Of a stretch of DNA of 64,000 nucleotides, positions 6,536 through 61,108 are shown one piece after another. The notes under the pieces are model-generated. The model was not told where the DNA came from, searched no databases, and saw only the letters and a list, made by a program, of their open reading frames with translations. This DNA is from an uncultured Pelagibacteraceae bacterium (GTDB taxonomy: Bacteria; Pseudomonadota; Alphaproteobacteria; Pelagibacterales; AG-422-B15): NCBI GenBank assembly GCA_902524285.1, contig CABZCR010000005.1, positions 6,441 to 70,440 of the forward strand, read 5' to 3'. How positions within the stretch are numbered: position 1 is the stretch's first letter; each line of letters starts with the position of its first letter. The position numbers and the translations under genes are program-made.

Positions 6536-7606
6536 ATGAAAAAGTTTATTACAAATCCATATTTTAAAAAAGGACTTCCAGGGGATAATGGTACTGATCC
6601 TGTTAGTACAGATGTTGAAGCTGTAAAAAAACTTTTGAGTTTATGTCCTAAAGCAGCTGAAACACCTTTAACTGAATCAGTCAAATTAAGTGATGAATTA
6701 GGTATTAAAAAATTATGGTTTAAGGATGAAAGAGACCGAATGGGCCTTGGAAGTTTTAAAGCCCTTGGCGCAGCGTTTGTAATCGCAAGTGATGCTGCGG
6801 AAAATTTAAAATCTTTAAGCAAGGATGCAAATTGGAGCTCAGCTCTTAATGGAAAAACTTATATATCTGCGAGCGCTGGTAATCATGGAATTTCTTTAGC
6901 AGCTGGTGCAAGAATATTTGGAGCAAAGGCTGTAATTTATTTATCTAAAAATGTCCCACCTAGCTTTGCAGATAAAATTAGAAGTTTTGGTGCAGAGGTT
7001 GTTGTATGCGGCAATAATTATGAAGAGAGTTTAGAGGGTGCCAAGCAAGAAGCTGAGAAAAACGGTTGGATGCTTTTGTCAGATGTGACCTGGGATGGAT
7101 ACGATCAAGGCTTGAGGGTTATGCAGGGATACTTAGTACTTGCAGATGAAGCATGTACAAAATGTGATGAGCCCCCAACACATATCTTTTTGCAAGCTGG
7201 AGTAGGAGGTTTTCCCGCATCCATTGCATCCTATATGAGAAAATATTTTGGTAATGATCCAAAAATAATAATTGTCGAACCCACAAAGGCTCCAGTATTG
7301 CTCGAGTCTATAAACAGAGGAGAAGCCATAACTGTTAAAGGTGGTGTTTCAAATATGGGACGATTAGATTGTAAAAGTCCTTCGATAAGAGCGTTATCAT
7401 CACTTGCAATTACTTGTACAAATTTTATGACAATCGAAGATGAAGATGCCGACATTGCAGTGAAAGAGCTGAGACAAAATAAATTTGATACTTCTCCATC
7501 AGGTGGAGCCGGTTATGCCGCTATCAAACAAGCAAAAAAATATCCAGAGTGTGGAATTGACAAAAATAGTAAGATTTTAATAATTTTGACTGAAAAGCCG
7601 GCTTAA
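6536..7606 (+). CDS. PLP-dependent diaminopropionate ammonia-lyase family protein
   Basis: KDE.RMGLGSFKALG, ASAGNHG and THIFLQAGVGG motifs. Confidence 0.85.
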   Translation: MKKFITNPYFKKGLPGDNGTDPVSTDVEAVKKLLSLCPKAAETPLTESVKLSDELGIKKLWFKDERDRMGLGSFKALGAAFVIASDAAENLKSLSKDANWSSALNGKTYISASAGNHGISLAAGARIFGAKAVIYLSKNVPPSFADKIRSFGAEVVVCGNNYEESLEGAKQEAEKNGWMLLSDVTWDGYDQGLRVMQGYLVLADEACTKCDEPPTHIFLQAGVGGFPASIASYMRKYFGNDPKIIIVEPTKAPVLLESINRGEAITVKGGVSNMGRLDCKSPSIRALSSLAITCTNFMTIEDEDADIAVKELRQNKFDTSPSGGAGYAAIKQAKKYPECGIDKNSKILIILTEKPA

Positions 7607-15148: not shown

Positions 15149-16944
15149 ATACAATTCCAAGACTTTTTTGGGACTCGGTTAAATCTCGTGGAGAAAAAGT
15201 TGCCATGAGAGAAAAAGATCTTGGTATTTGGCAAGAAATCTCATGGTCTCACTATGGAGAAAAGGCAAAACTAACTGGTCTTGCTCTTCACGCTCTAGGA
15301 CTAGAAAAAGGTAATGTGGTTTCAATTGCAAGTGAAGGAAATCCTGAGTGGCTTTATACTGATATGGGGACAATCGGTGCGGGAGGAATTTCTAGTGGAG
15401 TGTATACAACAGACTCGGCTGCACAGGTTAAGTATCTAGTAAATGATAGTGCTACAAAATTTTATTTTGCTGAAAATGAAGAACAGCTTGATAAAATTTT
15501 AGAAGTAAGAGGTGAGTGTCCTTCATTAAAACAAATTATTGTCTTCGATATGGAAGGGTTAAATGACTTTCATGATGATCAAGTTCTTAGCTATGAAGAG
15601 TTTTTAAAAATTGGTGAAAAAACTGATCAAGAAAACCCCAATCTTTGGGAAAGTTTAGTAAATAATGTAAGTCCAGATGACATTGCAATTTTAGTTTACA
15701 CATCAGGTACAACAGGGCCTTCAAAGGGTGCGATGATTAATCACACAAACTTACTTTATTCTATAAATACTGGATATGACATCTTTGATGTTATGGAACA
15801 CGAGGAGCAATTATCGTTTCTTCCGTTATGTCATATATTGGAGCGGTCAGTTTCAGTTATGATCCCTTTAAAAACAGGCGCAGTAGTTAATTTTGCAGAA
15901 AGTATTGATACAGTTCCTGAAAATATTCGAGAAGTTTCTCCCACAGTGTTTATTGCAGTCCCAAGGATTTGGGAAAAGTTTTATTCATCGATTACAATAT
16001 TAATGAAAGATGCAACTTTCGTTGGCAAGTTCTTCTATCAATTTTCAATAAATGTTGGCTCTAAATATAAAGAGTACTTTATTGATGGAAAAGAACCTCC
16101 TTTATCATTGAAATTATCTTATTGGATATGTAATCAACTGGTTTTAAAAAATATAAAAAAACTTCTCGGTTTGAATAACTGTCGTTACGCACTAAGTGGC
16201 GCTGCGCCTATATCACCTGATCTCATAAATTGGTATCTCTCACTTGGTATAGATATGAGAGAAGGATGGGGAATGACAGAAACTGCTGGAGTTGGAACTG
16301 CATTTTATTCCAGAGAAATAAAACTAGGACATGTTGGACGAGCCGTTAATGATTCTGAAGTAAGGATTGCGCAGGATGGAGAGATTTTATTTAGAGGTCC
16401 AGGCGTGTTTTGTGGTTATTTAAATAAACCTGAACAAACAAAAGAAACTCTGATTGATGGATGGCTGCATACAGGAGATGTCGGTGAGATTGATAATTAC
16501 GGAAATTTAAAAATTACAGATAGAAAAAAAGACATAATCATTACAGCTGGCGGAAAAAATATATCTCCATCTGAAATAGAAAATGAATTAAAATTTAGTC
16601 CATTTATATCAGATGCTGTTGTAATTGGTGATAAAAGAAAGTTTTTGTCATGTCTAATAATGATAGATGAGGAGAATGTGATGAAACACGCTCAGGATAA
16701 TGACATACCGTTTTCTAATTTTGAAAGTCTTTGTAAATCAGAGGAAATAGTTTCCTTGATCGATGATGAAGTCAATAAAGTAAATAAAAAATTTGCCTCT
16801 GTAGAACAAGTAAAAAAATTCTCATTAATTGATATACAATTAACAGCTGAAGACGATGAGCTCACTCCGACCATGAAGCTGAAACGCAAATTCATAAATC
16901 AAAAATACGGTGATATCATTGAAAGCATGTATCAATCTGCTTGA
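15121..16944 (+). CDS. Long-chain acyl-CoA synthetase (AMP-binding)
   Basis: YTSGTTGPSKG, WGMTE and GWLHTGDVG motifs; exact start uncertain (TTG 15121 or GTG 15139). Confidence 0.9.
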   Translation: MEKEKNVEINTIPRLFWDSVKSRGEKVAMREKDLGIWQEISWSHYGEKAKLTGLALHALGLEKGNVVSIASEGNPEWLYTDMGTIGAGGISSGVYTTDSAAQVKYLVNDSATKFYFAENEEQLDKILEVRGECPSLKQIIVFDMEGLNDFHDDQVLSYEEFLKIGEKTDQENPNLWESLVNNVSPDDIAILVYTSGTTGPSKGAMINHTNLLYSINTGYDIFDVMEHEEQLSFLPLCHILERSVSVMIPLKTGAVVNFAESIDTVPENIREVSPTVFIAVPRIWEKFYSSITILMKDATFVGKFFYQFSINVGSKYKEYFIDGKEPPLSLKLSYWICNQLVLKNIKKLLGLNNCRYALSGAAPISPDLINWYLSLGIDMREGWGMTETAGVGTAFYSREIKLGHVGRAVNDSEVRIAQDGEILFRGPGVFCGYLNKPEQTKETLIDGWLHTGDVGEIDNYGNLKITDRKKDIIITAGGKNISPSEIENELKFSPFISDAVVIGDKRKFLSCLIMIDEENVMKHAQDNDIPFSNFESLCKSEEIVSLIDDEVNKVNKKFASVEQVKKFSLIDIQLTAEDDELTPTMKLKRKFINQKYGDIIESMYQSA

Positions 16945-27202: not shown

Positions 27203-27979
27203 ATGTACAAATATTTCCTACAAGGACTCAGAATAGGTGTCATTTCTAATTTATTTCTACTTTGGGCCTCTTTAACAATAGCAAACATTAGCAATGACTT
27301 ATTCCTTGTTGTTCCTGCTATAATTTTAATATCAGTTTCTGCATTTAGATGTTTGTTTCCTGTAAATTATGCTTCTAAATCAGTGATTATTGACACAGTT
27401 CTTTCTTCAGTATTTGTGACACGATTTTTAGTAACCATCGTTGAGGTGACATATATCTATATGTTTAGTTATGTGCTCAGGGTTATTAATTCTGATCAAT
27501 ATATGCTTGTTGATTTAATTTCTTGGTTAATGGTTATCCAAGTAATTATTTCACAGTTTTTTTGTTGGGGTGCAATACTTTTAAAATACGAACGTTTTTA
27601 CTTTTATGAAGAGTTTGGATGGTTTGTAATTTTTTTAATTAATACGATTTTAAGCATAGCCATGCTTAGCTTAGATCTATCAAATGCTCATCATTCACTT
27701 ATTATTATTAACATAGTTTTTGGAGCTTTATATCTACCATGGCAAGTGCTGCATTTAAAATCTATAACAAAAAGAATAAATGATAATCCTGAAATTAAGG
27801 CTCAAGAATTCAAAGTGGATTTATCAAAAGTTAAAGTGGAATTAAAAAGCTCAATTAATGATCGAAAATTATCTTTTGAGAGTAACGATTGGGGCGGAGT
27901 AGTCGGGATGATGTGGATGTATGGGTATTGGATATTATTTATTCCAATATGGATTTTCTATATTATTTTAATTATTTAA
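27203..27979 (+). CDS. Hypothetical multi-pass membrane protein
   Basis: 258-aa hydrophobic ORF in an operon. Confidence 0.7.
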   Translation: MYKYFLQGLRIGVISNLFLLWASLTIANISNDLFLVVPAIILISVSAFRCLFPVNYASKSVIIDTVLSSVFVTRFLVTIVEVTYIYMFSYVLRVINSDQYMLVDLISWLMVIQVIISQFFCWGAILLKYERFYFYEEFGWFVIFLINTILSIAMLSLDLSNAHHSLIIINIVFGALYLPWQVLHLKSITKRINDNPEIKAQEFKVDLSKVKVELKSSINDRKLSFESNDWGGVVGMMWMYGYWILFIPIWIFYIILII

Positions 27980-28123
27980 CTATTCCCCCATATACGCCTA
28001 ACTCATACATTAGGATACGACATCAAACAGAGGTATAGCAATAAAATTATCTATACTTGCATACATACACGTACTGCCTTGTACAGGGTCGTGCAGTAGA
28101 GTACGTACACGAAGTAGGCCCGA
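27980..28123 (-). repeat. Right-arm att repeat copy 1, ending in a displaced livG 3' end (A-Y-M-G-E-TAG)
   Basis: 144 bp ungapped match to 29559-29702, 21 mismatches by hand count (~85%). Confidence 0.9.
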
Positions 28124-28171
28124 CCAATGTTCTTTCGCAACACAAAATAATTTAATTAATCTCACAAAGTA

Positions 28172-29434
28172 TTAATCATGTGAAAAAGTGCCATCAGGAT
28201 AAATTTTCTGAGCTTTGTAAAGTATTCTATGATCTTGGCTTAAAGACTCTTTTGCACCAATATCTAAAACAACTTCTCCATTTGAGTTTATTTCAAGTAA
28301 ATGACTTCCAGTAACAACCATAAAATTACCATTTTTCAATTTATCAACGTCCCTTATTGTTCCGTATGCCTTACTCTTAGGGGCTCGCCATTGCCAAACG
28401 ATTTTATCTGTCTCAGGATTAAACTCAATAGCTCTATCGGGATTCCTTAAACCAACTACTATATTGCCATTTTGAAGTTGTTGAGGCTCGTGAGGATTGC
28501 ATCCTCTTATCTCTCCAGAGGTCAAAAGAGCTCTTTTTTTCTTGTTACAATTAAAAATATATTTTTTTATTATCTCAGCCTCTCTATTAATCCAAATAAT
28601 TTCTTGAAAATCACGCATGGAGATTAAAAAAGTATCATCTGCAAGCGCAGTCACACCATTATTGTGTATCCAAGTTTTACCTGAACCAGTAGTTTTTGAA
28701 TCCGACGCATATGCATCTGCAAATGGAGCAATGTTATGAGTCTTCATGCCATCCCAACTCCACACAACGTTTTTATTGTTATCAACTTCGATGATTTTTT
28801 TACTTCCTTTAGGACCCCATGCGTAATTTATAAGGACATTTTCGTTCGATAACTTATCAACATCATGACTTACTTTAGTTTTGTAAGACCAAATTACTTT
28901 GCCTTCTCTATCTATCTCATAAACCCCTTTTTCAGCGGCGATTAAAATTGTGTTTTTATTTGTGAATTTAGCATCATCTAATCTTCCAAATGAGCTATCC
29001 CCATTGTATTGCCAAACGATTTCAGCATTATTAGTAATTTCCACTACTCGACCGTGTGAATTTTTTTGAGGGACAACTAGTAAAAATGTTCCTTCCTGAA
29101 TTTTATTAGCTTCATATACTAATAATTGCAGATCTTTACCAAAAGGGGAGGTTTTAAAAATCTGAGGATCTTGTTCACTGCTAGCAACATTATTTCCATT
29201 TTTCTTCCATATTTTTTTACATGATTGAATAACCTCTTTTGCTTTTTTTCTTAATGGTTTTTCGTCTGGTCGACCGTTTTCTAAGAATTTGATTTCACTT
29301 TCTTCTAAACCATTACTTTTAAAGCATTTCAGAACTTCTTCATTTGGATTAGAAAAAATATCCCATTTGCTAGCCTGACTAGGACCAGAATAGAGAATAA
29401 AAATAATTGTGATTATTAATTTACAAAATTTCAT
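28172..29434 (-). CDS. Secreted arylsulfotransferase-like beta-propeller protein
   Basis: Signal peptide; repeated E.D..G..VW.W/Y blades; SHDVD, WIHNN and PHEP His motifs. Confidence 0.65.
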   Translation of the reverse strand: MKFCKLIITIIFILYSGPSQASKWDIFSNPNEEVLKCFKSNGLEESEIKFLENGRPDEKPLRKKAKEVIQSCKKIWKKNGNNVASSEQDPQIFKTSPFGKDLQLLVYEANKIQEGTFLLVVPQKNSHGRVVEITNNAEIVWQYNGDSSFGRLDDAKFTNKNTILIAAEKGVYEIDREGKVIWSYKTKVSHDVDKLSNENVLINYAWGPKGSKKIIEVDNNKNVVWSWDGMKTHNIAPFADAYASDSKTTGSGKTWIHNNGVTALADDTFLISMRDFQEIIWINREAEIIKKYIFNCNKKKRALLTSGEIRGCNPHEPQQLQNGNIVVGLRNPDRAIEFNPETDKIVWQWRAPKSKAYGTIRDVDKLKNGNFMVVTGSHLLEINSNGEVVLDIGAKESLSQDHRILYKAQKIYPDGTFSHD

Positions 29435-29513
29435 ATAAATAACTTTATTTATAAATTGTTAAGAATTTATTGCATTTTAGTATCATAAAACTATTTGTAA
29501 AAAAAAATTTAAC

Positions 29514-29558
29514 AAAGTGGGAGTTAAAAGTTGCAGCTAATTCGTTGAATAGAAGAAT
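29514..29558 (-). repeat. Left-arm att repeat of cassette A
   Basis: 31/45 identity to 32194-32238 at the same distance from the core (aaagtrgrggttaaaagttg-type block). Confidence 0.75.
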
Positions 29559-29704
29559 TTACTCCCCCATATACGCCTGAGTCATACGTTGCTGTACAAC
29601 GTCGAACTTAGGTTTAGCAACAAAATTATCTATACTTGCATTCATACACGTACAGCCTTGTTAAGGGTCGTGCAGTAGAGTACGTACACGAACTAGGCCC
29701 GAAT
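29559..29704 (-). repeat. Right-arm att repeat copy 2, ending in Q-A-Y-M-G-E-TAA
   Basis: Homologous to 27980-28123; last codons mimic the livG 3' end. Confidence 0.9.
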
Positions 29705-29723
29705 ATTACCTTTCTACGTATGA

Positions 29724-30110
29724 TTATTTACAGATACCTCTATCAACTATTTGGCTTTCTGCACCAAGTTCCTTTAACATAATTGATACTTCGTACTCTT
29801 TTGATTTATTATCAATTTTCATAAAGAAATAAGATAATTTCTCCTCAATTGACAAAGCCCAAAAGTCTCCGACCTTGGGACCGTGATATTCTAAATAGTT
29901 AACTTTCTCACCATCAATACTTGAATTGTGGTCACTGACTCCAAGTAACGCCCTGTAAGAACCTTCCTCTATGGGAATATAAGCTGGATCTAAAATCACA
30001 AGGTATTTTGAATCACTATCATCAGAAATACAAAATAATTCCTTTTCAAAACTTGCATTAGCTACAGTCGTAAAACCTAATATGATTAATATGGAGAGTA
30101 GGTGTTTCAT
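29724..30110 (-). CDS. Secreted hypothetical protein (cassette cargo)
   Basis: Start moved to MKHLLSILIILGFTTVANA signal peptide at 30110. Confidence 0.7.
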   Translation of the reverse strand: MKHLLSILIILGFTTVANASFEKELFCISDDSDSKYLVILDPAYIPIEEGSYRALLGVSDHNSSIDGEKVNYLEYHGPKVGDFWALSIEEKLSYFFMKIDNKSKEYEVSIMLKELGAESQIVDRGICK

Positions 30111-30703
30111 TCTTCTATAAGCCAGTTTCGTCAACTAGACATCCATTGTCATACTTTTTTGATCTATAAGATATTCGAATAGACTGGATATCTTCTTTAT
30201 TATCGTAATCTAAACTACCACTTAAAAAAATATTATATTTTTCATAATCAATACTAAGAGATCTAATTAAATGTTCATCTACATATTCGTCACTTTTAAT
30301 ATTTCCTAGGTCACCATATTTTTCAATTAGCTTAGAAGCCAGATTATTATAAACTTCATTTAAATTTATTAATATTTCTGCAGACTCTTCCCCATTGGTG
30401 CTACTCGCTGAAACACTTTCAATTCTTCCATCATTACAGGCAGTTGTAATCGAATACTGGATAAAATGTTTGTTTGGTTCAGGCGGGCTTACTTCAAACA
30501 CCATTCGATTCATTTTATCGGGATATTCGTCTTCTAACTTACTAAATCCAAATTTATTTCCATCTTCATCTTGATAGTGGTAAATTAGATCATTTAATGT
30601 AATGCCAAATGGCGTTAAAATAATATTTGCTTTAGGCGCATCCGAGATTGCAGCTGTCATCAGACCTAACAAGATTAATATGGAGAGTAGGTGTTTCATT
30701 CTT
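30084..30703 (-). repeat. 31-bp exact direct repeat covering two gene starts (30084-30114 and 30673-30703)
   Basis: gattaatatggagagtaggtgtttcattctt occurs twice. Confidence 0.9.
30115..30699 (-). CDS. Secreted hypothetical protein (cassette cargo)
   Basis: MKHLLSILILLGL signal peptide; acidic mature part. Confidence 0.7.
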   Translation of the reverse strand: MKHLLSILILLGLMTAAISDAPKANIILTPFGITLNDLIYHYQDEDGNKFGFSKLEDEYPDKMNRMVFEVSPPEPNKHFIQYSITTACNDGRIESVSASSTNGEESAEILINLNEVYNNLASKLIEKYGDLGNIKSDEYVDEHLIRSLSIDYEKYNIFLSGSLDYDNKEDIQSIRISYRSKKYDNGCLVDETGL

Positions 30704-30962
30704 TTTCATACTTACGTTTAATGACTTCAATATCTGATTTAATGGCGTCTAAATCGTTTTTTATATCAACAACATCTTCGCCGCTAATACTTTTAGATAT
30801 CTCTTCCAATCGATCTGATTGATACATCATCATTGCCGTATGTCGATCATCAGCGGTAATGATTGCGGCTCTCGTAGTAAGCAAGAACCATATAACCACA
30901 ACCATAAAAATAATTATGATCAATTCAAAATAGTTGGAAATAAAGTCCATAATAAATTCCAT
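30696..30962 (-). CDS. Small TM plus coiled-coil protein (cassette cargo)
   Basis: N-terminal TM, heptad-like C-terminus; ATGA overlap with the next gene. Confidence 0.7.
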   Translation of the reverse strand: MEFIMDFISNYFELIIIIFMVVVIWFLLTTRAAIITADDRHTAMMMYQSDRLEEISKSISGEDVVDIKNDLDAIKSDIEVIKRKYEKE

Positions 30963-31091
30963 TTCAAAATCTTACAGCACATAGTTTAAAAGGCAATTTC
31001 GTTTACAACCCCCCTATATATACAGTTAACCCCCGTATTTTAGATTGATGGGTTAGGTTGTTCAAAACCCCCTATGTGCTAATATTTCAAT
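30963..31091. promoter_or_regulatory. Divergent sigma70-like promoters, probably leaderless
   Basis: Minus: TTGCCT-16-TAAGAT-6-ATG; plus: TTGTTC-16-TAATAT-6-ATG; both spacers contain ctatgtgc. Confidence 0.6.
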
Positions 31092-31370
31092 ATGAAGAAT
31101 GTAAAGTGGGAAAATACCAAGACAGTTATAGCATTAGTAATCTTTGTATTGATAATCATTGCAATTGGTCTTTCTCTTTACCCTGATACAAACGAAGGTA
31201 GAAATGACCTTCAACAAATAGGTACTGCCATTGCTGAATACTCGATAGGTGATGTTATAAAGTTGGTATGGAATTTTCCAATGAGTATCATCCTCCTAAC
31301 TTTTTTGGCTTGGTATTTACTTTGGCCTAGGGGTTTATTTAGATTTAAGAAGGAGAGTAAAAATGACTGA
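31092..31370 (+). CDS. Small 2-TM protein (cassette cargo)
   Basis: Two hydrophobic helices. Confidence 0.65.
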   Translation: MKNVKWENTKTVIALVIFVLIIIAIGLSLYPDTNEGRNDLQQIGTAIAEYSIGDVIKLVWNFPMSIILLTFLAWYLLWPRGLFRFKKESKND

Positions 31371-31602
31371 CTTAGTTTTGGTAGGTTTTATCGTTATCTC
31401 AATTATTTTGATTGCTGGTATATATCTTATACGTGATGCAATCGGACAAGTTGTTGAAAATCAAGTTCCAATAACACAAAACCAACTAATTTTAATAGGT
31501 AAACTTAAAAGGATTGAAGACTCTATTTACAGCGTACAAAGCAATATCAAGGAAATAAAAAGTCTTACAGATGATATTGAGCGTAATCAAAGAAGTTTGT
31601 AA
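31363..31602 (+). CDS. Small TM plus coiled-coil protein (cassette cargo)
   Basis: aaggag RBS; TM followed by heptad repeat. Confidence 0.7.
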   Translation: MTDLVLVGFIVISIILIAGIYLIRDAIGQVVENQVPITQNQLILIGKLKRIEDSIYSVQSNIKEIKSLTDDIERNQRSL

Positions 31603-31611
31603 AGTAACGTT

Positions 31612-31809
31612 ATGAAAACATTTTTGTTCAGACTATCTAGACTAATAAGCGTGATTATGTTTCTACTAATATTATTAATATTTATTGGATTTATTAACAA
31701 AGGGATTACTCTTTTTGGTGTTTTTACTATTAGTTTAATACTCTTGCTGCCAATATTAATCTTTAATTGGGTTTGTTTTGGCAAAATATCAATTTGGATT
31801 AACAAATGA
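31612..31809 (+). CDS. Small 2-TM protein (cassette cargo)
   Basis: Hydrophobic; ...FNWVCFGKISIW end. Confidence 0.6.
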   Translation: MKTFLFRLSRLISVIMFLLILLIFIGFINKGITLFGVFTISLILLLPILIFNWVCFGKISIWINK

Positions 31810-32054
31810 GCTTTAAAGAAATATTCGATGCTATTGGTAACGCGTTCAGAGAAGTGGGAGAGTTAATAAGTCTTTTGGGAAGTTTTTTATGGAACTCACC
31901 GTGGTACTTTACAGCTTTATTTATTTTGACAGTGATATTTGGGACAGCATTATTTACCTCTAGTGATGAACATTGGTCGACTAGACTATTAATAGCTGTT
32001 TTCTTTTTAGCTTCAGGTTATGGAACTATTAGTTATTGGCCTTCAGTATCATAG
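31806..32054 (+). CDS. Small membrane protein (cassette cargo)
   Basis: ATGA overlap with the previous gene; hydrophobic. Confidence 0.6.
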   Translation: MSFKEIFDAIGNAFREVGELISLLGSFLWNSPWYFTALFILTVIFGTALFTSSDEHWSTRLLIAVFFLASGYGTISYWPSVS

Positions 32055-32123
32055 TCAAGTGTCACAACTGCCATATAATCTTACTTAACTTATATAACTG
32101 AAAAATTGAATTTATTTGACGTT

Positions 32124-32250
32124 TAGGACCCGAACTAGGCCCGAATTAAATAATAAGTAATTGATATTATTTACAAAATTAAAAAAGACACAAAAAGTAG
32201 GGGTTAAAAGTTGAGTCTTATCAATGGGTTAGAGGATTTTACTCCCCCAT
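32124..32250 (-). repeat. Left end of cassette B: tandem arm-type repeats, two IHF-consensus sites, left-arm block and core
   Basis: taggacccgaac-taggcccgaa (32124-32145); WATCAANNNNTTR matches at 32154-32166 (minus) and 32219-32231 (plus). Confidence 0.75.
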
Positions 32251-32997
32251 GTAAGCTTGCTTAACATCAGCGTTATTTTTAATTTCCTCAGGTAGACCAG
32301 ATGCAAGTATCTTACCGTAATTAAGCGCAAGTATACGATCTGAAACTTTATTTACAAAACTCATGTCGTGTTCAATCATAATTATGGTAATTCCTAATAA
32401 AGATTGAATATCCTTTATCCAAAAGCCAAGATCAATTGTTTCCTCATTTGTTAATCCTGATGACGGTTCATCTAATAGAAGTAATTTTGGATCAGTGCAA
32501 AGAGCTCTTGCAAGCTCAACATTTTTGCGAACACCGTAGGGAAGGCCGTTTATAAGAGTATCTCGGTAATGCTGAAGGTCTAGGAAGTCAATTACTTCTT
32601 CAACTTTGAGCCTGTATTCATGTTCTTGCTTGCGGGCACTGGGTGTAAAAAATACCTCAGATAAAATATTCGTTTTTTTATAAATGTGTCGTCCAAGAAG
32701 TAAATTCTGTAGAACAGTTGCATTTTCAAATAATTCTAAATTTTGAAACGTTCTTGCTATTCCAAGCTTTGATATATTGTGAGGCTTAGTTTTTGAGATG
32801 TTTTGATTTTCAAAATATATCTCACCTTTGCTTGGCTCATAGATTCTGCTTATGACATTGAAGAGTGTTGATTTACCTGCTCCGTTAGGACCAATTATTG
32901 TAAATATTTCACCTTTATCGACACCAAACGATACATCATTAAGGGCTTTTACTCCTCCAAATGCTACAGTGATATTTTTTACTTCAAACAAACTCAT
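32239..32997 (-). CDS. livG: LIV-type ABC ATPase (LivG-like); its 3' end is the cassette target
   Basis: GPNGAGKST, GIARTFQN and LLLDEP motifs; ends VKQAYMGE. Confidence 0.9.
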   Translation of the reverse strand: MSLFEVKNITVAFGGVKALNDVSFGVDKGEIFTIIGPNGAGKSTLFNVISRIYEPSKGEIYFENQNISKTKPHNISKLGIARTFQNLELFENATVLQNLLLGRHIYKKTNILSEVFFTPSARKQEHEYRLKVEEVIDFLDLQHYRDTLINGLPYGVRKNVELARALCTDPKLLLLDEPSSGLTNEETIDLGFWIKDIQSLLGITIIMIEHDMSFVNKVSDRILALNYGKILASGLPEEIKNNADVKQAYMGE

Positions 32998-54703: not shown

Positions 54704-55420
54704 ATGACTAATTACAAAAGAGTGGCAATTTACTTTTTGCCTAAAAAAAACTCGAGTTTAGAAAACTTCGGAAAAAACCTTTTAGGTAGAGATATCAATA
54801 AAAAGAAAAAAATATCACTAACAAGACGTCAAAAATATTTTATTAGTAGAGGTTTTACATTCTTTGATGAACTTAAAGACTATTGTGAACAGCCTGCAAA
54901 GTATGGGTTTCACGCAACATTAAAGGCACCATTTAGACTTAAAAGAAATGTTAAAACAAAAAATTTTTATGATGTTATTAGCCATATAGCAGCACAACAT
55001 AGTAGATTTAAGATACAAGGTTTAAAAATTGTTTATAGTAAAAAATTTACTTTCATAACTAGCAGAAAACCAAACAAATTATTAATAAACCTTGAGAATG
55101 ATCTTGTTAAACATCTAGATACTTTTAGGGCAGAGCTAAATAAAACAGAAATAAAAAAAAGGATCCCTGATTCTTTAACTATTAAGCAAAACAAATATTT
55201 AAAAGAGTGGGGATATCCATTCGTCTTTGATCAGTTTAAATTTCATATGACGCTAATGAACCAAAATAACAATAAATTATCTAACAAACAAAAATTAGAA
55301 CTAGAAAAATTAATTTACAAAATATCAAATAATGTAATTGAATTTAATGAAATTAGTTTACTTGGTGAAAATAAAAATGGCCATTTTGAGGAAATAAAAA
55401 GGTTTAAATTAAACTTTTAA
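54704..55420 (+). CDS. DUF1045 phosphonate-associated 2H phosphoesterase
   Basis: RVAIYF, YGFHATLKAPF and WGYPFVFDQFKFHMTL motifs. Confidence 0.85.
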   Translation: MTNYKRVAIYFLPKKNSSLENFGKNLLGRDINKKKKISLTRRQKYFISRGFTFFDELKDYCEQPAKYGFHATLKAPFRLKRNVKTKNFYDVISHIAAQHSRFKIQGLKIVYSKKFTFITSRKPNKLLINLENDLVKHLDTFRAELNKTEIKKRIPDSLTIKQNKYLKEWGYPFVFDQFKFHMTLMNQNNNKLSNKQKLELEKLIYKISNNVIEFNEISLLGENKNGHFEEIKRFKLNF

Positions 55421-55955
55421 TTAATGCAGTTAAATTCATAATACCTTGATTAATACTGCTATTATTTTCTACAAATTTTGTACTTGTTGGTAAATTATAA
55501 TTTTCTCTTTTTATTCGAGAGTTGATTTCGAATTCGTTCTCTCTTTTTCTATCAAAAATTCGTTGACTCAATAAATTGCTAGTAGCATTTATGTGTATAA
55601 CGATAGAAGAGGATATATCATATAATATATTATTTATATATTCTCTAGATCCAGCAAATATTATGTTTTTCCCATCTTTAAGATCGTCAATTGCATCTTT
55701 GTGAATACCATAATTGCAATTATTTGCATTCCATGTTGTACAAAATAAATTTTCACTCTTCATTTGTGTAAATATTTTTTCATCAATAGGGTTATAGTCT
55801 TCATTAATATCTATTTTAGTTCTTGTAATGTATCTTTTGATCGCCTTTAGATTATCGATATTTTTACAGGCTCCATTTATAAGGGTATTTTTACCAGATC
55901 CTGATGGACCTAAGACGATAAAAGCCTTGCCGTTTCTTTTAATGCTTTGTTTCAA
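55404..55955 (-). CDS. phnN: Ribose 1,5-bisphosphokinase
   Basis: GPSGSGK, RYITR and W.AN...YG motifs. Confidence 0.85.
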   Translation of the reverse strand: MKQSIKRNGKAFIVLGPSGSGKNTLINGACKNIDNLKAIKRYITRTKIDINEDYNPIDEKIFTQMKSENLFCTTWNANNCNYGIHKDAIDDLKDGKNIIFAGSREYINNILYDISSSIVIHINATSNLLSQRIFDRKRENEFEINSRIKRENYNLPTSTKFVENNSSINQGIMNLTALIKSLI

Positions 55956-56613
55956 TGTTTAGATCAATCTCTCTTACATTCAACTTTTTTCGAGAATATT
56001 CGTCATGAAAGATCCCAATAATTGATACGCCTCTATTAGATTTCGCTTTAATTAAATTGATAATTATATCACGATTTCTACTGTCAAGACTTGCAGTTGG
56101 CTCATCGAGTAACAAGTAAGGAAGGTCTTTTATAAAACCTCGTGCGATATTAATTCTCTGTTGCTCGCCCCCAGAAAAAGTTAGCGGAGATAAGTGCCAC
56201 AAATTCTTCTCAATATTTAAGTCCTTTAAAAGTTTTATCGATTTTTTATAAGCATTATTTTTATTATCACCTGAATTTAATAATGGTTCCATTATTACAT
56301 CTAAAGCAGAAATACGGGGTATCACTTTTAAAAATTGGCTCACATACCCAATTGAAGTTTTTCTAAGTTTAAGTATTTCCTGAGCCGATAGAGTGGCAAT
56401 ATTTTTATTATTTATAATTATAGCACCCTTATCAATTATATAACTTCCATAAATCATCTTTAAAATACTTGATTTACCTATGCCTGATGGTCCTTTAAGG
56501 GCTACAATTTCACCTGGATTAACCTCAAAATTTAAATTTTTAAAAACTGTTATCTTCGCGTTATTTTGGTTAAATAAAGTAAACGATTTATTAACTTTTT
56601 TTACCTCAATCAT
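55939..56613 (-). CDS. phnL: C-P lyase ATPase subunit
   Basis: GYVSQFL, P.TFSGGEQQR and GIFHD motifs. Confidence 0.93.
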   Translation of the reverse strand: MIEVKKVNKSFTLFNQNNAKITVFKNLNFEVNPGEIVALKGPSGIGKSSILKMIYGSYIIDKGAIIINNKNIATLSAQEILKLRKTSIGYVSQFLKVIPRISALDVIMEPLLNSGDNKNNAYKKSIKLLKDLNIEKNLWHLSPLTFSGGEQQRINIARGFIKDLPYLLLDEPTASLDSRNRDIIINLIKAKSNRGVSIIGIFHDEYSRKKLNVREIDLNIETKH

Positions 56614-56614
56614 A

Positions 56615-57385
56615 TTAAACGTGTAACACCGAACTTACTAATAGCTGTGTATATTCTTGCTGAGGATCTTCAAGTACCTGATCGCTTAAACCAGACTCAA
56701 TTACAGTACCGTTTTTCATGACAATCATTTTATCTGCAAGTAATCTGATAACGGCTAAATCATGTGATACAATAATTACTGTAAGGTTCAACTCATTAAC
56801 AAGTGATCTTATCAAATCAAGAACACGAGCTTGAACTGAAACATCTAGCCCACCAGTTGGTTCATCCATAAAAATAACATTTGGGCTTGTTATTAGATTT
56901 TTTGCTATTTGAAGTCTTTGAAGCATTCCACCTGAGAAAGTAATGGGTAGATCATCAATTCTACTTTTGTCTATTTCAACTTTATTAATCCATTTTGTTG
57001 CTAAGCTTCTTATATTTCCATAATGTCTATAGCCAACAGACATTAATTTTTCGCCTATATTACCACCTGCTGATACATTTAATCTTAATCCGTCACGTGG
57101 GTTTTGATGAACAAAAGCTAAATCTGTTCTAATAAATTTTCTTTTCTCTGACTCTGATATATTTAAAAAGTCGGTTTCTTTGTTGTTAATATTGAAAATT
57201 ATTTTTCCTCTATCAGGCTCAAGATTGCCGGATAAGCAGTTAATTAAGGTTGTTTTACCGGAACCAGACTCACCGACAATGCCCAATACTTCACCTGGAT
57301 ATAGTGACATTGAAATATTTTTACATCCAACAATATTATCATAAGATTTGCTTAAATTTGTAACGTTTAAAAGAGGGATTATCAT
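56615..57385 (-). CDS. phnK: C-P lyase ATPase subunit
   Basis: VSAGGNIGE, RHYG.IR and DEPTGGLDVSVQAR motifs. Confidence 0.93.
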   Translation of the reverse strand: MIIPLLNVTNLSKSYDNIVGCKNISMSLYPGEVLGIVGESGSGKTTLINCLSGNLEPDRGKIIFNINNKETDFLNISESEKRKFIRTDLAFVHQNPRDGLRLNVSAGGNIGEKLMSVGYRHYGNIRSLATKWINKVEIDKSRIDDLPITFSGGMLQRLQIAKNLITSPNVIFMDEPTGGLDVSVQARVLDLIRSLVNELNLTVIIVSHDLAVIRLLADKMIVMKNGTVIESGLSDQVLEDPQQEYTQLLVSSVLHV

Positions 57386-58272
57386 TTATTTTTTCTTTTA
57401 TTACAAAAATCTGTATCTGAGCAAATAAAAGATTTATTTCCCGCATCATCAACAATAATTTCATCTAAATATGTATTCTTTGATCCACAAATATCACACG
57501 CGTGTTCAGCTTTAAATGGGTCAAATGGGTAGTCTTCAAAATCGAGACTTTTAACTTTTGTATATGGTGGAATAGCATAAATTCTTTGTTCTCTTCCAGC
57601 ACCAAATAGCTGTATCGCTGGTGAGTTATTCATTTTAGGATTATCAAATTTTGGTATTGGGGATGGATCCATTATATAACGATCATTAGTTTTTACTGGA
57701 TAAGCGTAAGCGGTTTCTATATGCCCATTTTTTGATATATCTTCATAGAGCTTTACGTGCATTGCGCCATATTCGGAAAGAGAGTGCATTTTTATTGTTT
57801 CAGATACTTTAGGTTCTAGAAAGGCCAAGGGTTCAGGGATGGGTACCTGATAAACAAATATTTGTTTCTTTTTTAATGGTGTTTCAGGAATTCTATGTCT
57901 AGTTTGTATCAGTGTTGCTTTTTCAGTAATTTCAGTAGTTTTAATATTTGAAGTTTTTTTGAAAAAATTTCTTATTGATACAGCGTTGGTAGTATCGTCA
58001 GCTCCCTGATCTATTATTTTTAAAGTGTCTCTTTTTGTTAAGCAGCTCGCAGTAACTTGGACTCCACCTGTTCCCCATCCATATGGCATAGGCATTTCTC
58101 TAGAGGCAAAAGGAACCTGATAACCTGGAATACATAAAGCTTTTATTATTGCACGTCTTATCATTTTTTTTGTATTCTCATCTAAATACGCAAAATTATA
58201 TTCTTGATCAAAAGGTAGACCTTTGTCTACTTTGAAATCTTTAATCTTAATTACGTTATTTGTTTTTCTCAT
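57382..58272 (-). CDS. phnJ: C-P lyase radical SAM subunit
   Basis: YNFAYLDE, PYGWGTGG and CDIC...CSDTDFC motifs; start moved to 58272. Confidence 0.95.
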   Translation of the reverse strand: MRKTNNVIKIKDFKVDKGLPFDQEYNFAYLDENTKKMIRRAIIKALCIPGYQVPFASREMPMPYGWGTGGVQVTASCLTKRDTLKIIDQGADDTTNAVSIRNFFKKTSNIKTTEITEKATLIQTRHRIPETPLKKKQIFVYQVPIPEPLAFLEPKVSETIKMHSLSEYGAMHVKLYEDISKNGHIETAYAYPVKTNDRYIMDPSPIPKFDNPKMNNSPAIQLFGAGREQRIYAIPPYTKVKSLDFEDYPFDPFKAEHACDICGSKNTYLDEIIVDDAGNKSFICSDTDFCNKRKNK

Positions 58273-59326
58273 ACTCTTTACGAATTCTTCTAACCAATTC
58301 CAGCTCTGATTGAAAATCAACATAATGGGGTAACTTTAAATGTTCCAAAAACCCAGTTGCCTGTATATTATCACAATGTGACAATACAAACTCTTCATCC
58401 TGAGCAGGTGCTCCGACAAACTCTTCACCAATTTCTTTCCACCTTAATGCCCTATCGACTAGGGCCATTGATACTGCCTTTCTTTCTAATTGACCAAATG
58501 TCAAACCATATCCTCGTGTAAATTGTGCGGGTGTTTTTTTGCTTCCTTGAAATTGATTTACACTCTCGCACTCAGTAACAATTATTTCTGCAATATCGAT
58601 CTCAATGTCTAATTCTGGAATGTTGTACTTAACTTTTACATAACCAATTCTTAATTCACCTACAAAAGCATGATTTCTAGCGTAGCCTCTTTGAGTTGAA
58701 TAAGCTAAAGCAAGAAGAAATCCTTCATCGGCTCTAGAAAGTGATTGTAACCTCTCACTTCTATTAGCTGGAAACTCAAGTGGATTTCTTGTGATGTCTT
58801 TTGGCTGATAATTATTATTTTTTTCTTTTTGAATAAGGCCTTCTTTATTTAAAAATCTCAGTACGTGAGGTATTTTTTCCTTTAATACTTTTCGTTTTTC
58901 TGCCTTAGGTATATTGCCTTCAGCCAGTAAACTAAAGTCTAAAAGTCTGTGTGTATAATCAAATGTAGGCCCCAATTTTTGTTTTCCAGGAATATCTTTA
59001 TAAGTTGCTGAGATTCTTCTCATGCATACCATATCTTCTGTTTTAATAGGGGGGGATGTTCCAAATCTTGGTAGAGTTGTACGATAGGCCCTGATTAAGA
59101 AGATGGCTTCAATAAGGTCACCTCTTGATTGTTTTATGGCGAGAGCTGCTAGATCAGTATCATATAATGATCCTTCTGACATGACCCTTTCAACAGACAA
59201 TGTCAACTGTTCTTTAATTTGATCAATTTCGAGGTTGGGAACATTAACATCACCTCTCCTTATTTCTGAAAGCCAATTATGAGCATTTTCAATTGCTTTT
59301 TCACCACCTTTAACAGCTACATACAT
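58256..59326 (-). CDS. phnI: C-P lyase subunit
   Basis: MYVAVKGGEKAI and HLKLPHYVDFQSEL motifs. Confidence 0.97.
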   Translation of the reverse strand: MYVAVKGGEKAIENAHNWLSEIRRGDVNVPNLEIDQIKEQLTLSVERVMSEGSLYDTDLAALAIKQSRGDLIEAIFLIRAYRTTLPRFGTSPPIKTEDMVCMRRISATYKDIPGKQKLGPTFDYTHRLLDFSLLAEGNIPKAEKRKVLKEKIPHVLRFLNKEGLIQKEKNNNYQPKDITRNPLEFPANRSERLQSLSRADEGFLLALAYSTQRGYARNHAFVGELRIGYVKVKYNIPELDIEIDIAEIIVTECESVNQFQGSKKTPAQFTRGYGLTFGQLERKAVSMALVDRALRWKEIGEEFVGAPAQDEEFVLSHCDNIQATGFLEHLKLPHYVDFQSELELVRRIRKEYEKNK

Positions 59327-59331
59327 AGAAA

Positions 59332-59898
59332 CTATCCTTTCTTTTTAATTTTTATTGATCTTGGAATGCAAAAAAAATTGCTTTTATTGGTAAAATAGAA
59401 ATCTATACCAAGGGGGAAGGAGTTATTTACATCACTTATTTTATTCGCATGTGGTAAGTAGATATCTTTGCTACCTTTGATACCGGGCCCCGAAATACTT
59501 ACATTGTCTGATTTAAAGGGTGTCTCAATTATTAATGTACATGATCTATCCGGAAACTCGTCTGATCCTCTAGAGAACTCTGTAAGGGGCAACATGTCAT
59601 GGAAAGTACCAATTGCAAAATTTGCAAATTTTTTATCTACTATTTTAGAGTTTGTATGAAAGGCTACCCAATCTCTTAAGGATTTAGTGTCTAATGATTT
59701 TCCAATATAAATGGTGCTGGTGTGATCGCACATAGTGGACAAAATAGAAGCTGAAGATGTAGAAATTTGTTTAGGTTTATTTATCTCTAAAAACTTTTCA
59801 ATTGATCCAGGATAAGAAGTTGCAAACAATATAGCTCTGAATGCATCGGCTTTTATAATAGACTCGTTTTCATTTGTATTAATCATTTCAAGTTTCAC
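59332..59898 (-). CDS. phnH: C-P lyase subunit
   Basis: FRAIL...PG, FHT, PDRSCTLI, GPGI and FPLGID motifs. Confidence 0.9.
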   Translation of the reverse strand: MKLEMINTNENESIIKADAFRAILFATSYPGSIEKFLEINKPKQISTSSASILSTMCDHTSTIYIGKSLDTKSLRDWVAFHTNSKIVDKKFANFAIGTFHDMLPLTEFSRGSDEFPDRSCTLIIETPFKSDNVSISGPGIKGSKDIYLPHANKISDVNNSFPLGIDFYFTNKSNFFCIPRSIKIKKKG

Positions 59899-60319
59899 CT
59901 CGCACCAATGTAAAGAAATCGACAGCTGTTGACTCTGATTTTGACATTACATCTTTTTTTAAATTTTTATCGCTTACAACTAGAGGGCGTATTATATTTT
60001 TGATTAAAAAATCTCTTTTATTTGTTTGCAGTAAAGCATCGCATATAGCAACAATTTCAGCCTTATGTTTATTTCTTCCTTGCACATATCCGTGACCAAT
60101 TTTTCCTTGTGAGGTTTTCAATTGACAACGGGTAATAGTAACTTCACCAAAATTGAAATTATTTCCTGTTACTCCAATTTTTCCTTGACACATTATACTG
60201 CCTATTTCCGGTTTTCTAAGCCATGTGAAATTTACCTCAATACCAAATTTTTCCCAAAGAGAAGTTAGGTGGGCATCATTACATGTAGCCAATGTACTAA
60301 GCCAAAATTTTCTTTCCAT
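59888..60319 (-). CDS. phnG: C-P lyase subunit
   Basis: RKPEIG, FNFGEVTITRC and VDFFTLVRGE motifs. Confidence 0.93.
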   Translation of the reverse strand: MERKFWLSTLATCNDAHLTSLWEKFGIEVNFTWLRKPEIGSIMCQGKIGVTGNNFNFGEVTITRCQLKTSQGKIGHGYVQGRNKHKAEIVAICDALLQTNKRDFLIKNIIRPLVVSDKNLKKDVMSKSESTAVDFFTLVRGET

Positions 60320-60325
60320 ATTAAT

Positions 60326-60399
60326 CTATACAACTATACAAGTATACTATATTAATTATGCCGATTCTTTTCAATTTATTTATTAAAATTATGTTACAA
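60326..60399 (-). promoter_or_regulatory. phnG promoter: Pho-box-like repeat, TTGAAA-17-TATAGT, and candidate PhnF operator repeats
   Basis: Minus TTGTAAC-ataa-TTTTAAT (60382-60399); tandem TTGTATAG just downstream of the -10. Confidence 0.55.
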
Positions 60400-60406
60400 T
60401 AACTAA

Positions 60407-61108
60407 ATGTTTGCCTGGGAAGAAATAAGGGACTCAATAAAAAAAGATATTATTGATCGTAAGCTTCGATTAGGGGAAAAAATCTATTCTGAAAACTATT
60501 ATGCTAAGCTTTTTAAGGTGAATAGGCATACAGTTAGACGTGGAATCGAGGCCCTTAAAAAAGAAAATATCATTTATTCGAGAAGAGGTTTAGGATATTT
60601 TCTTAACTCTAAGAAAATAAATTATAAAATCGGAAAAACAGTAAGGGCATCACAGAATTTAAATCAAGAGACTACTGATATTGCTGTAGATATTATTTCT
60701 ATAGATAAGAGAAAAGGGTACAGCAATGAAATAAGAGAATTTAATTTAAAAAAAAATGATTCAGTTTTCTATATTTATACAATCTCTAAAGCTAATGGTA
60801 TTCCACTTATTTTAACAGAAAGATTAGTCCCAGAAAAAAGATTTAAAAATTTTGATTTATTTTTTCGTAAAACTGGCTCTATGACATTGTCCTTTAATAA
60901 ATATGGATTAAAAAAAATATATAGAAAAAAAACAACAGTATCAGCAGAGAGTGCGAATAATGTACAATCCAAATATTTAAAAATAAATATCGGAGACCCG
61001 TTAATACATACAAAAGCAATAAATACAGATATTAATAACAAACCAATTGAGATAAGTGATAGTTATTTCGTTGGAAGTAAAATTCAATTAGAAGTAAGCA
61101 AATTATAA
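60407..61108 (+). CDS. phnF: GntR/HutC-family phosphonate regulator
   Basis: SE..YAKLFKVNRHTVRR HTH plus UTRA-like domain; divergent from phnG. Confidence 0.9.
   Translation: MFAWEEIRDSIKKDIIDRKLRLGEKIYSENYYAKLFKVNRHTVRRGIEALKKENIIYSRRGLGYFLNSKKINYKIGKTVRASQNLNQETTDIAVDIISIDKRKGYSNEIREFNLKKNDSVFYIYTISKANGIPLILTERLVPEKRFKNFDLFFRKTGSMTLSFNKYGLKKIYRKKTTVSAESANNVQSKYLKINIGDPLIHTKAINTDINNKPIEISDSYFVGSKIQLEVSKL

Follow-up and report, generated by a model that had tools for sequence, protein, structure and literature searches.

How do small gene cassettes come to stand in tandem behind the last codons of an intact protein-coding gene? The question was raised by a 64,000-nucleotide (nt) stretch of DNA from an uncultured Pelagibacteraceae bacterium (hereafter, the window), in which an array of short repeats and small genes separates livG, the gene for a branched-chain amino-acid ATP-binding cassette (ABC) transporter ATPase, from a convergent gene. 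An earlier note, made from the sequence alone, had interpreted the array as two successive insertions of a very small element family into the end of the ATPase gene. The comparison with related genomes and metagenomes gave good support to a structural reading in which the last codons of livG are a site-specific docking site, occupied in the window by three or more non-autonomous cassettes. As an explanation of the whole, we consider it probable, if well short of certain, that the 3' end of livG is a bacterial attachment site (attB) for site-specific cassettes moved by a recombinase supplied from elsewhere.

The target gene livG (32239..32997, minus strand) was intact and encoded 252 amino acids (aa); its identity was confirmed by the domains ABC_tran and BCA_ABC_TP_C at residues 229-252. 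The distal flank of the docking site was formed by the convergent gene (27203..27979, plus strand), encoding a 258-aa membrane protein with no Pfam family. A 14-nt core repeating the last codons of livG was present three times on the plus strand, as a distal copy CTATTCCCCCATAT (27980-27993) with a left half of the native type (ctattc), a middle copy TTACTCCCCCATAT (29559-29572) at the junction of the cassettes designated A and B1, and a proximal copy TTACTCCCCCATGT (32239-32252) corresponding to the last codons and stop of livG. All three copies encoded A-Y-M-G-E-stop on the minus strand, the copy at 32239 being the true end of livG, and the stop of the outermost copy directly abutted that of the convergent gene at 27979. 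Two kinds of arm flanked the cores. The right arm X was repeated at 27981-28123 and 29560-29702 (143 nt, 86% identity, ungapped, spacing 1579), and the left arm Y, approximately 58 nt long, at 29501-29579 and 32181-32259 (71% identity over a 79-nt repeat including the core, spacing 2680). The three cores, the shared arms and the abutting stops were all found where the earlier note had placed them. No tRNA was detected in the window, the docking target being the stop region of livG.

We retrieved 40 related loci and oriented them on livG; with the window counted in, the two flanking genes, livG and the convergent gene, were both present at 30 loci. Of these 30, six (in the genomes G054, G039, G043, G033, G014 and G042) were empty sites, in which the stop of livG abutted the stop of the convergent gene in the sequence ...ttaattatttaa|ctattcaCCCAT(A/G)Taagcttg and livG ended with GGT GAA TAG. 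Empty sites with exactly this abutment had been predicted from the window, and the proposal that the elements insert into the final codons of a gene for a protein was supported. The remaining 24 loci were occupied by varied cargo, with gaps of 412-10,926 nt between the two genes; at least one further core copy was found in 20 of the 24 islands, and the distal core was absent from four. The empty form was also detected in public marine metagenome runs, examined as assembled Logan contigs, where contigs from three of four runs joined position 27992 to 32252 and skipped 4259 nt. As the shorter side of each of these contigs was just 28 nt, under the tool's caution threshold of 30, they most likely came from other strains or species.

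The occupied sites located the point of exchange. Their distal junction consisted of native ctattca joined to X (ACGCCTGAGTC...), and their proximal junction of the left half of a cassette (Y...ttactcc) joined to native livG sequence. When the junctions were compared, core positions 1-7 tracked the left neighbour and position 13 tracked the right neighbour, and exchange therefore occurred within the invariant CCCAT. The 8-mer that had been taken for the crossover from the three copies in the window was narrowed to CCCAT(AT) by the empty sites. Core identity between attB and the site on the element (attP), with the crossover in a short overlap, was a feature shared with att sites of the lambda/P4 type. 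The cassette ends resembled the native site even beyond the shared 5-7 nt (ttactcc against ctattca; ACGCCTG against AAGCTTG), and the element end restored the last codons of livG synonymously, GGT GAA TAG becoming GGG GAG TAA, as the note had supposed of element ends. The mimicry beyond the shared segment and the restored codons thus formed a signature of attP-by-attB recombination and not of target duplication. Transposition with target-site duplication, or illegitimate insertion mediated by microhomology, would make short direct repeats, and CCCATAT does bound each unit. We nevertheless regard such an origin as very unlikely, since native-like ends are what homology between attP and attB predicts, no terminal inverted repeats were found in the repeat search of the window, and no recombinase or transposase family was found among 38 cargo proteins scanned (8 from the window and three further sets of 10), with no genome-wide transposase search made.

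The mobility of the cassettes was most evident from cassette A. In the window, it comprised the right arm X1 (27981..28142, delimited in a 21-copy X alignment), cargo A (28172..29434, minus strand) and the left arm Y1 (29501..29558, short Y-b type); cargo A encoded a 420-aa secreted arylsulfotransferase-like protein (PF05935, E 6e-17). Measured from core to core, the X-A-Y unit was 1.57-1.58 kb long and was shared at 99.2-99.9% identity by genomes from two deep groups, whereas the adjacent livG genes of these genomes were only 74-77% identical and the convergent genes 68-69%. Mismatch maps showed that the identity ended exactly at the cores. Cargo A was present at 97% or higher aa identity in 15 of 41 loci, and the surroundings of the cassette were of at least six kinds: it stood immediately between livG and the convergent gene, after a CIA30-like gene or a DUF7424 gene, or ahead of an autotransporter cassette, a glyoxalase-like cassette or, in the window, cassette B. 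In the metagenomes, cargo A was deeply covered in all four runs, which came from four studies, by contigs with 0-1 differences, and the loose ends of contigs showed the Y arm and core of cassette A joined to several livG variants. The cover of cargo B was little or none in the same runs, far shallower than that of cargo A. We also observed that the interval 28454-29435 of cargo A was represented by a contig of at least 982 nt in each of the four runs, which is unusually invariant for a flexible gene. Because sites occur empty, cargo varies and identity across species breaks at the cores, the cassettes are, as judged from these sequence comparisons, mobile units flanked by att sites.

Some features of the locus would also be expected of relics, that is, of autonomous elements that have lost their integrase by deletion and now spread by homologous recombination through shared flanks and arms. 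The X arms were mosaic, with an inner half that moved with cargo A and an outer half that varied between genomes. The window contained a decayed junction at 31003-31075, the distal core was missing from the four islands mentioned above, and the 16-22-nt repeats described below as Z were decayed in cassette A. However, the identity of cassette A stops at both cores, its flanks, at 68-77%, are too diverged for homologous exchange, and the same unit stands next to different neighbours. Neither was an integrase fragment seen in any island. We consider the relic explanation unlikely, if not negligibly so; the suggestion in the note that the elements could be eroded remnants is disfavoured in the case of cassette A, a unit that moves with exact boundaries.

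The rest of the array in the window turned out to be composite. The right arm X2 of cassette B1 (29560..29704) was followed by cargo B1 (29724..30962, minus strand), consisting of three small open reading frames (ORFs; 136, 194 and 88 aa) of signal-peptide or membrane character with no Pfam family. Cargo B2 (31092..32054, plus strand) consisted of four small membrane ORFs (92, 79, 65 and 82 aa), none of which scored above the Pfam curated cut-off, and was followed by the left arm Y2 (32110..32238, long Y-a type). The two gene sets of opposite strand were separated by the decayed junction (31003..31075), a former cassette boundary that retains three core-like motifs (CCCCC(N)TAT) at intervals of 21-38 nt as well as a decayed long Y-a arm, and a metagenome contig ran on from 31051 into a different arm type. 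Because of this decayed Y arm and core-like junction, what appeared as a single cargo B is two cassettes, and the window holds at least three, one more than the two insertions originally proposed. A promoter-like site was found upstream of cargo A; the promoter and terminator scan of the window gave counts no higher than in shuffled sequences. Three other identities were considered for the X arm and rejected. A structured RNA was not indicated, as there was no Rfam match at the gathering level and a single chance match (E 0.87). An attC-like hairpin was not indicated by the single-sequence folds (z -0.2 to -1.5), and the fold of the X alignment gave scattered short pairs with no arm-spanning hairpin (z -3.2 on the plus strand and -0.6 on the minus strand). 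A decayed 3' end of livG was dismissed because the resemblance of X to livG was limited to the last approximately 21 nt.

The window belongs to a single-cell genome whose assembly (958 kb) is fragmented and 69% complete, and an artefact of assembly or amplification would be a natural suspicion about tandem repeats in such a genome. This is refuted: the repeat copies were 71-86% alike and not identical, as an assembly duplication would have them, and the same architecture was met again in further single-cell genomes and, independently, in metagenome contigs. The sampled genomes of the order fell into the family of the window, with 59 species genomes, and a sister family of much larger size. X or Y arms were found in 24 of 45 other genomes of the genus and in two of six genomes of a second genus, the arm-bearing relatives being single-cell genomes, while arm matches in the sister family were rejected as chance ones inside a coding gene. 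A strict X pattern searched against one genome per species (185,579 species) gave 19 contigs, all matching the family of the window.

The core was similarly confined. In the window, the pattern TAYTCCCCCATRTA matched the plus strand at 27981, 29560 and 32240, and a fourth time, with one mismatch, inside phnJ at 57561; these four matches compare with 0.03 expected by chance, and a count of four was reached in none of 100 shuffles. Of the 11 CCCCC runs on the plus strand of the window, seven fell within 27985-32244. In five near-complete genomes, the core was restricted to the livG locus except for two chance matches within genes. The extra core matches (in G051 and at 57561 of the window) were rejected as further att sites, as they lay inside unrelated genes. 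The gene phnJ itself is part of a C-P lyase (phosphonate) cluster at 55404-61108, together with phnG, phnH, phnI, two ABC ATPases (PhnK/L-like by position), a protein of the guanylate-kinase fold (PhnN-like by position) and a divergent GntR/UTRA regulator gene.

What the arms enclosed was highly variable. The same X and long-Y arms surrounded at least eight different gene sets at different loci, which bore out the interchangeable cargo of the earlier proposal, and approximately 28 left-end types and 10 right-arm types had in common only the core and the letters ANG. The cargo, encoded on both strands across the islands, included surface and envelope proteins (autotransporters, a porin and an EamA transporter), enzymes (an alpha/beta hydrolase, a phospholipase D-like enzyme, an M48 peptidase and an HD protein), and restriction or defence functions (DNA methylases, a type III restriction helicase, a PD-(D/E)XK nuclease and AIPR). 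The gap between livG and the convergent gene was 10.9 kb at one locus (L075; G056:C2, 36-50 kb), where approximately 9.6 kb was occupied by defence-type genes for an AIPR protein, a C5 DNA methylase and an 1118-aa protein of the helicase/RNase H fold; a core copy marked one end of these 9.6 kb, and a livG end of the native type marked the other. On a metagenome contig (L111:1-6391), a 6-kb gene block led straight into an X arm whose core was intact; by eye we take the block to resemble sugar or surface-polysaccharide biosynthesis genes, accompanied by the gene for an MsbA-like ABC exporter with 27% identity to LivG. As the X arm of this contig comes directly after such genes, the cargo beside these arms can be large cell-surface gene sets.

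The long arms carried a further regularity. Where a cassette had X-like and long-Y arms, a repeat of 16-22 nt, termed Z and built as a tandem of approximately 11-nt units, was located approximately 116 nt into the right arm and approximately 108 nt into the left arm before the next core. The Z pair of the window was at 29686-29704 in X2 and 32128-32146 in Y2, with a further copy at 28107-28125 in X1; the sequence ACCCGAACTAGGCCCGAAT at 32128-32146 repeated the inner end of X for a third time, approximately 35 nt inside Y2. With the cargo removed, the arms aligned end to end across arm families and two genera, and their lengths together came to 224 nt for six cassettes and to 220 nt for one more. 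Z differed between families and covaried inside a cassette, with 17.0 of 22 positions identical for pairs from one cassette against 11.6 of 22 for pairs from different cassettes, a value reached in none of 20,000 permutations of 12 cassettes that are not independent. Between cassettes with different cargo, the homology extended 20-25 nt past Z on both sides. Because the homology runs on beyond Z, a target duplication made by cargo insertion is the less likely origin of the pair, and Z looks like a pair of putative arm-type binding sites in a lambda/P4-like attP of approximately 325 bp.

The search for the enzyme weighed against a recombinase supplied from elsewhere, and did so in several ways. 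No helper or autonomous copy with an integrase, which the note had hoped to find, was detected in the 59 family genomes, six metagenome contigs, IMG/VR or a phage collection. The six contigs were those with X arms in a metagenome scan; their matches were limited to livG/livM, the arms and known island cargo, and none was integrase-like, ORFs having been listed for L111 alone. IMG/VR and the phage collection contained no X or Y arm, and the X pattern had no match in viral contigs. A PF00589 profile search found two Xer-like genes (approximately 302-325 aa) per genome as the sole tyrosine recombinases in 44 of 46 genomes of the genus, and the additional matches, in G018 and G041 only, were at other loci, as were the small serine recombinases (PF00239) above the cut-off in two of the 46. 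An integrase of the G018 type was found in one of 400 sampled genomes of the order, and the abundance of the cassettes sits badly with so rare a helper. No circle or excision product was seen in the assembled contigs, nor any 'go back' joint, but these contigs are uninformative on circles. Moreover, Z was decayed in cassette A, the most widespread cassette, and cassettes of 412-506 nt had no long arms at all, both of which speak against arm sites being strictly needed.

Several related results complete this search. The PF00589 profile detected no tyrosine recombinase near the site on the livG contigs, and the phage collection gave no match to either junction. Viral matches to the core patterns (2, 3 and 17) were set aside as resembling chance, as none was accompanied by livG, arms or cargo and five of them represented one unrelated conserved sequence. 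The G018 integrase, which has an arm-binding domain (PF13356 in addition to PF00589), was located elsewhere and had neither X nor Y arm; in this respect the livG cassettes differ from lambda/P4-type systems, no cognate arm-binding integrase having been found. Relatives of this integrase were absent from the viral contigs, and in the order just weak Xer-like matches were obtained. The locus of this gene (L098:7181-16250; G018:C1, approximately 109.2-118.2 kb) was a 9-kb integrative element between an oligopeptidase-like and a gamma-glutamyltranspeptidase-like gene, which encoded the 415-aa integrase and an 809-aa primase/helicase-like protein. There was no tRNA or Rfam RNA at its ends, and a repeat of the GTGGTGTAAAT type was present at 7265 and 16217-16244.

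With so few other candidates in these genomes, the resident recombinases have to be considered. Integrative mobile elements exploiting Xer (IMEX) and pdif modules are Xer-dependent and have no integrase of their own. The livG cassettes are like them in lacking an integrase, in genomes where Xer proteins are the only common recombinases, and XerC/XerD might move them in the same manner, with the livG core serving as a secondary site. An enzyme present in every cell would suit the abundance of the cassettes and account for the fact that no integrase is ever linked to them, and the livG locus was 68-70 kb from a candidate dif site in G051 and G054. The available part of a 2026 preprint on an Arctic Pelagibacterales population likewise reports the Xer pair as the sole tyrosine recombinases in its 15 genomes. 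On the other hand, the candidate dif (ATTCGTATAA TATATA TTATGTAAAAT) of the genome under study, which is of canonical type, was found outside the window, on another contig (C6:68165-68185), and it was kept in four of the five genomes searched as a conserved island in an unconserved AT-rich spacer. The livG site was neither dif nor dif-like: a cassette junction agreed with the dif arms at 11 of 22 positions, and because 5% of background positions score at least as high, we rejected the core as a dif mimic; the empty site matched at 14 of 22, within chance for a scan of approximately 130 positions. Long conserved arms with covarying repeats are also foreign to Xer sites. Movement by XerC/XerD is accordingly improbable in our estimation.

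Returning to livG as the attB of cassettes mobilized in trans, the events could have been as follows. The core of each small circular cassette would be a copy of the last approximately 14-21 nt of livG, and in one large cassette family this core would stand between a right arm X of approximately 145-165 nt and a left arm Y of approximately 60-145 nt. Such a cassette would undergo conservative site-specific recombination with the livG stop region inside the invariant CCCAT, and its core would provide synonymous last codons and a stop, so that livG stays whole. Each arrival would add a core copy, and the array would grow towards the convergent gene. The enzyme would most likely be a tyrosine integrase that also reads the repeated arm sites, and it may come from a helper element or a virus not yet sampled. 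Homologous exchange between arms would later reshuffle arms and cargo.

The closest known kinds of element are cis-mobilizable elements (CIMEs) and tandem or degenerate tycheposons. CIMEs are described, in the available part of the source, as having intact attL and attR, no integration or transfer genes, and tandem accretion at the 3' end of a gene (PMC6323972). The livG cassettes, too, are bounded by core copies, that is, by retained attL/attR direct repeats, and no recombinase family was found among their 38 cargo proteins, which agrees with the very small, recombinase-free family of the earlier note. They differ from CIMEs in that a cognate autonomous element using the same att site was not found, in their size of 0.4-7.5 kb with dozens of cargo types at one site, and in their host, a streamlined marine bacterium in whose islands no conjugation or integrase genes were seen, conjugation genes not having been searched for. 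As far as the accessible text describes them, the tycheposon arrays of Prochlorococcus arise by successive integrations at one site, which push older elements inward and leave partial target copies between them, and tycheposons have their own recombinase, often replication genes, and tRNA/tmRNA targets (bioRxiv 10.1101/2020.12.28.424599). Measured against that account, the tycheposon-like character proposed for the array stood for its formation, namely tandem units with partial target copies between them and niche or defence cargo in a streamlined ocean bacterium. It did not stand for membership, the livG cassettes having no tyrosine or large serine recombinase, no replication genes and no tRNA/tmRNA target, and docking instead at the stop region of a protein-coding gene.

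Within the same bacterial order, the gMED islands of SAR11 were reported to show cassette insertion marked by a partial tRNA repeat, with no canonical mobile elements (PMC11796062). A target repeat likewise marks insertion at livG; in the gMED islands, however, the sites are tRNA/tmRNA genes, and the available part of that article reports no conserved arms, series of empty sites or identical cassettes across species, and does not mention livG. A full-text search, which covers articles and not the supplementary files that possibly list such islands, returned no paper on livG as an integration site of genomic islands. As in integrons and clusters of attC sites lacking integron-integrases (CALIN), an array of small cassettes with exchangeable cargo has formed at one site. 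The livG array nevertheless departed from them in every defining feature examined, and the integron-like label of the note was abandoned: there was no adjacent intI and no attC-type hairpin, cargo lay on both strands with the promoter-like site upstream of cargo A, and recombination took place at a copy of a gene 3' end.

These comparisons bear on how SAR11-type bacteria acquire genes. Few cells in the ocean are as abundant as these bacteria, whose large pangenomes are held in many small, positionally fixed variable loci. In the available parts of papers on SAR11, canonical mobility genes are nearly absent, XerC/XerD are the sole common site-specific recombinases, and the establishment of cassettes is left unresolved (PMC11796062; 2026 Arctic Pelagibacterales preprint). 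A speculative extension, to which we give a low probability, is a two-tier gene capture without a linked recombinase, in which an att module at the livG stop and an internal cargo slot would be run by resident enzymes or passing viruses. The conserved module of approximately 240-325 bp would be exchanged core by core, and the slot, through which arbitrary cargo would be exchanged, would be marked by the covarying pair of 16-22-nt repeats. If true, it would be the missing mechanism that spreads small cassettes across SAR11-type species without canonical mobile elements. In any case, the livG locus provides a concrete case of an attB in the last codons of a gene, where sister species present a series of sites with and without cassettes, the cassette boundaries are precise, and one cassette is near-identical across species whose flanks differ by approximately 25%. 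The conserved arms with their covarying repeats would point to a specific DNA-binding enzyme. Cassette exchange in streamlined genomes thereby becomes an assayable question, namely which protein recombines the livG core, and the core and arms together offer a sequence handle for finding cassettes and helpers in long-read metagenomes, vesicle DNA and viromes.

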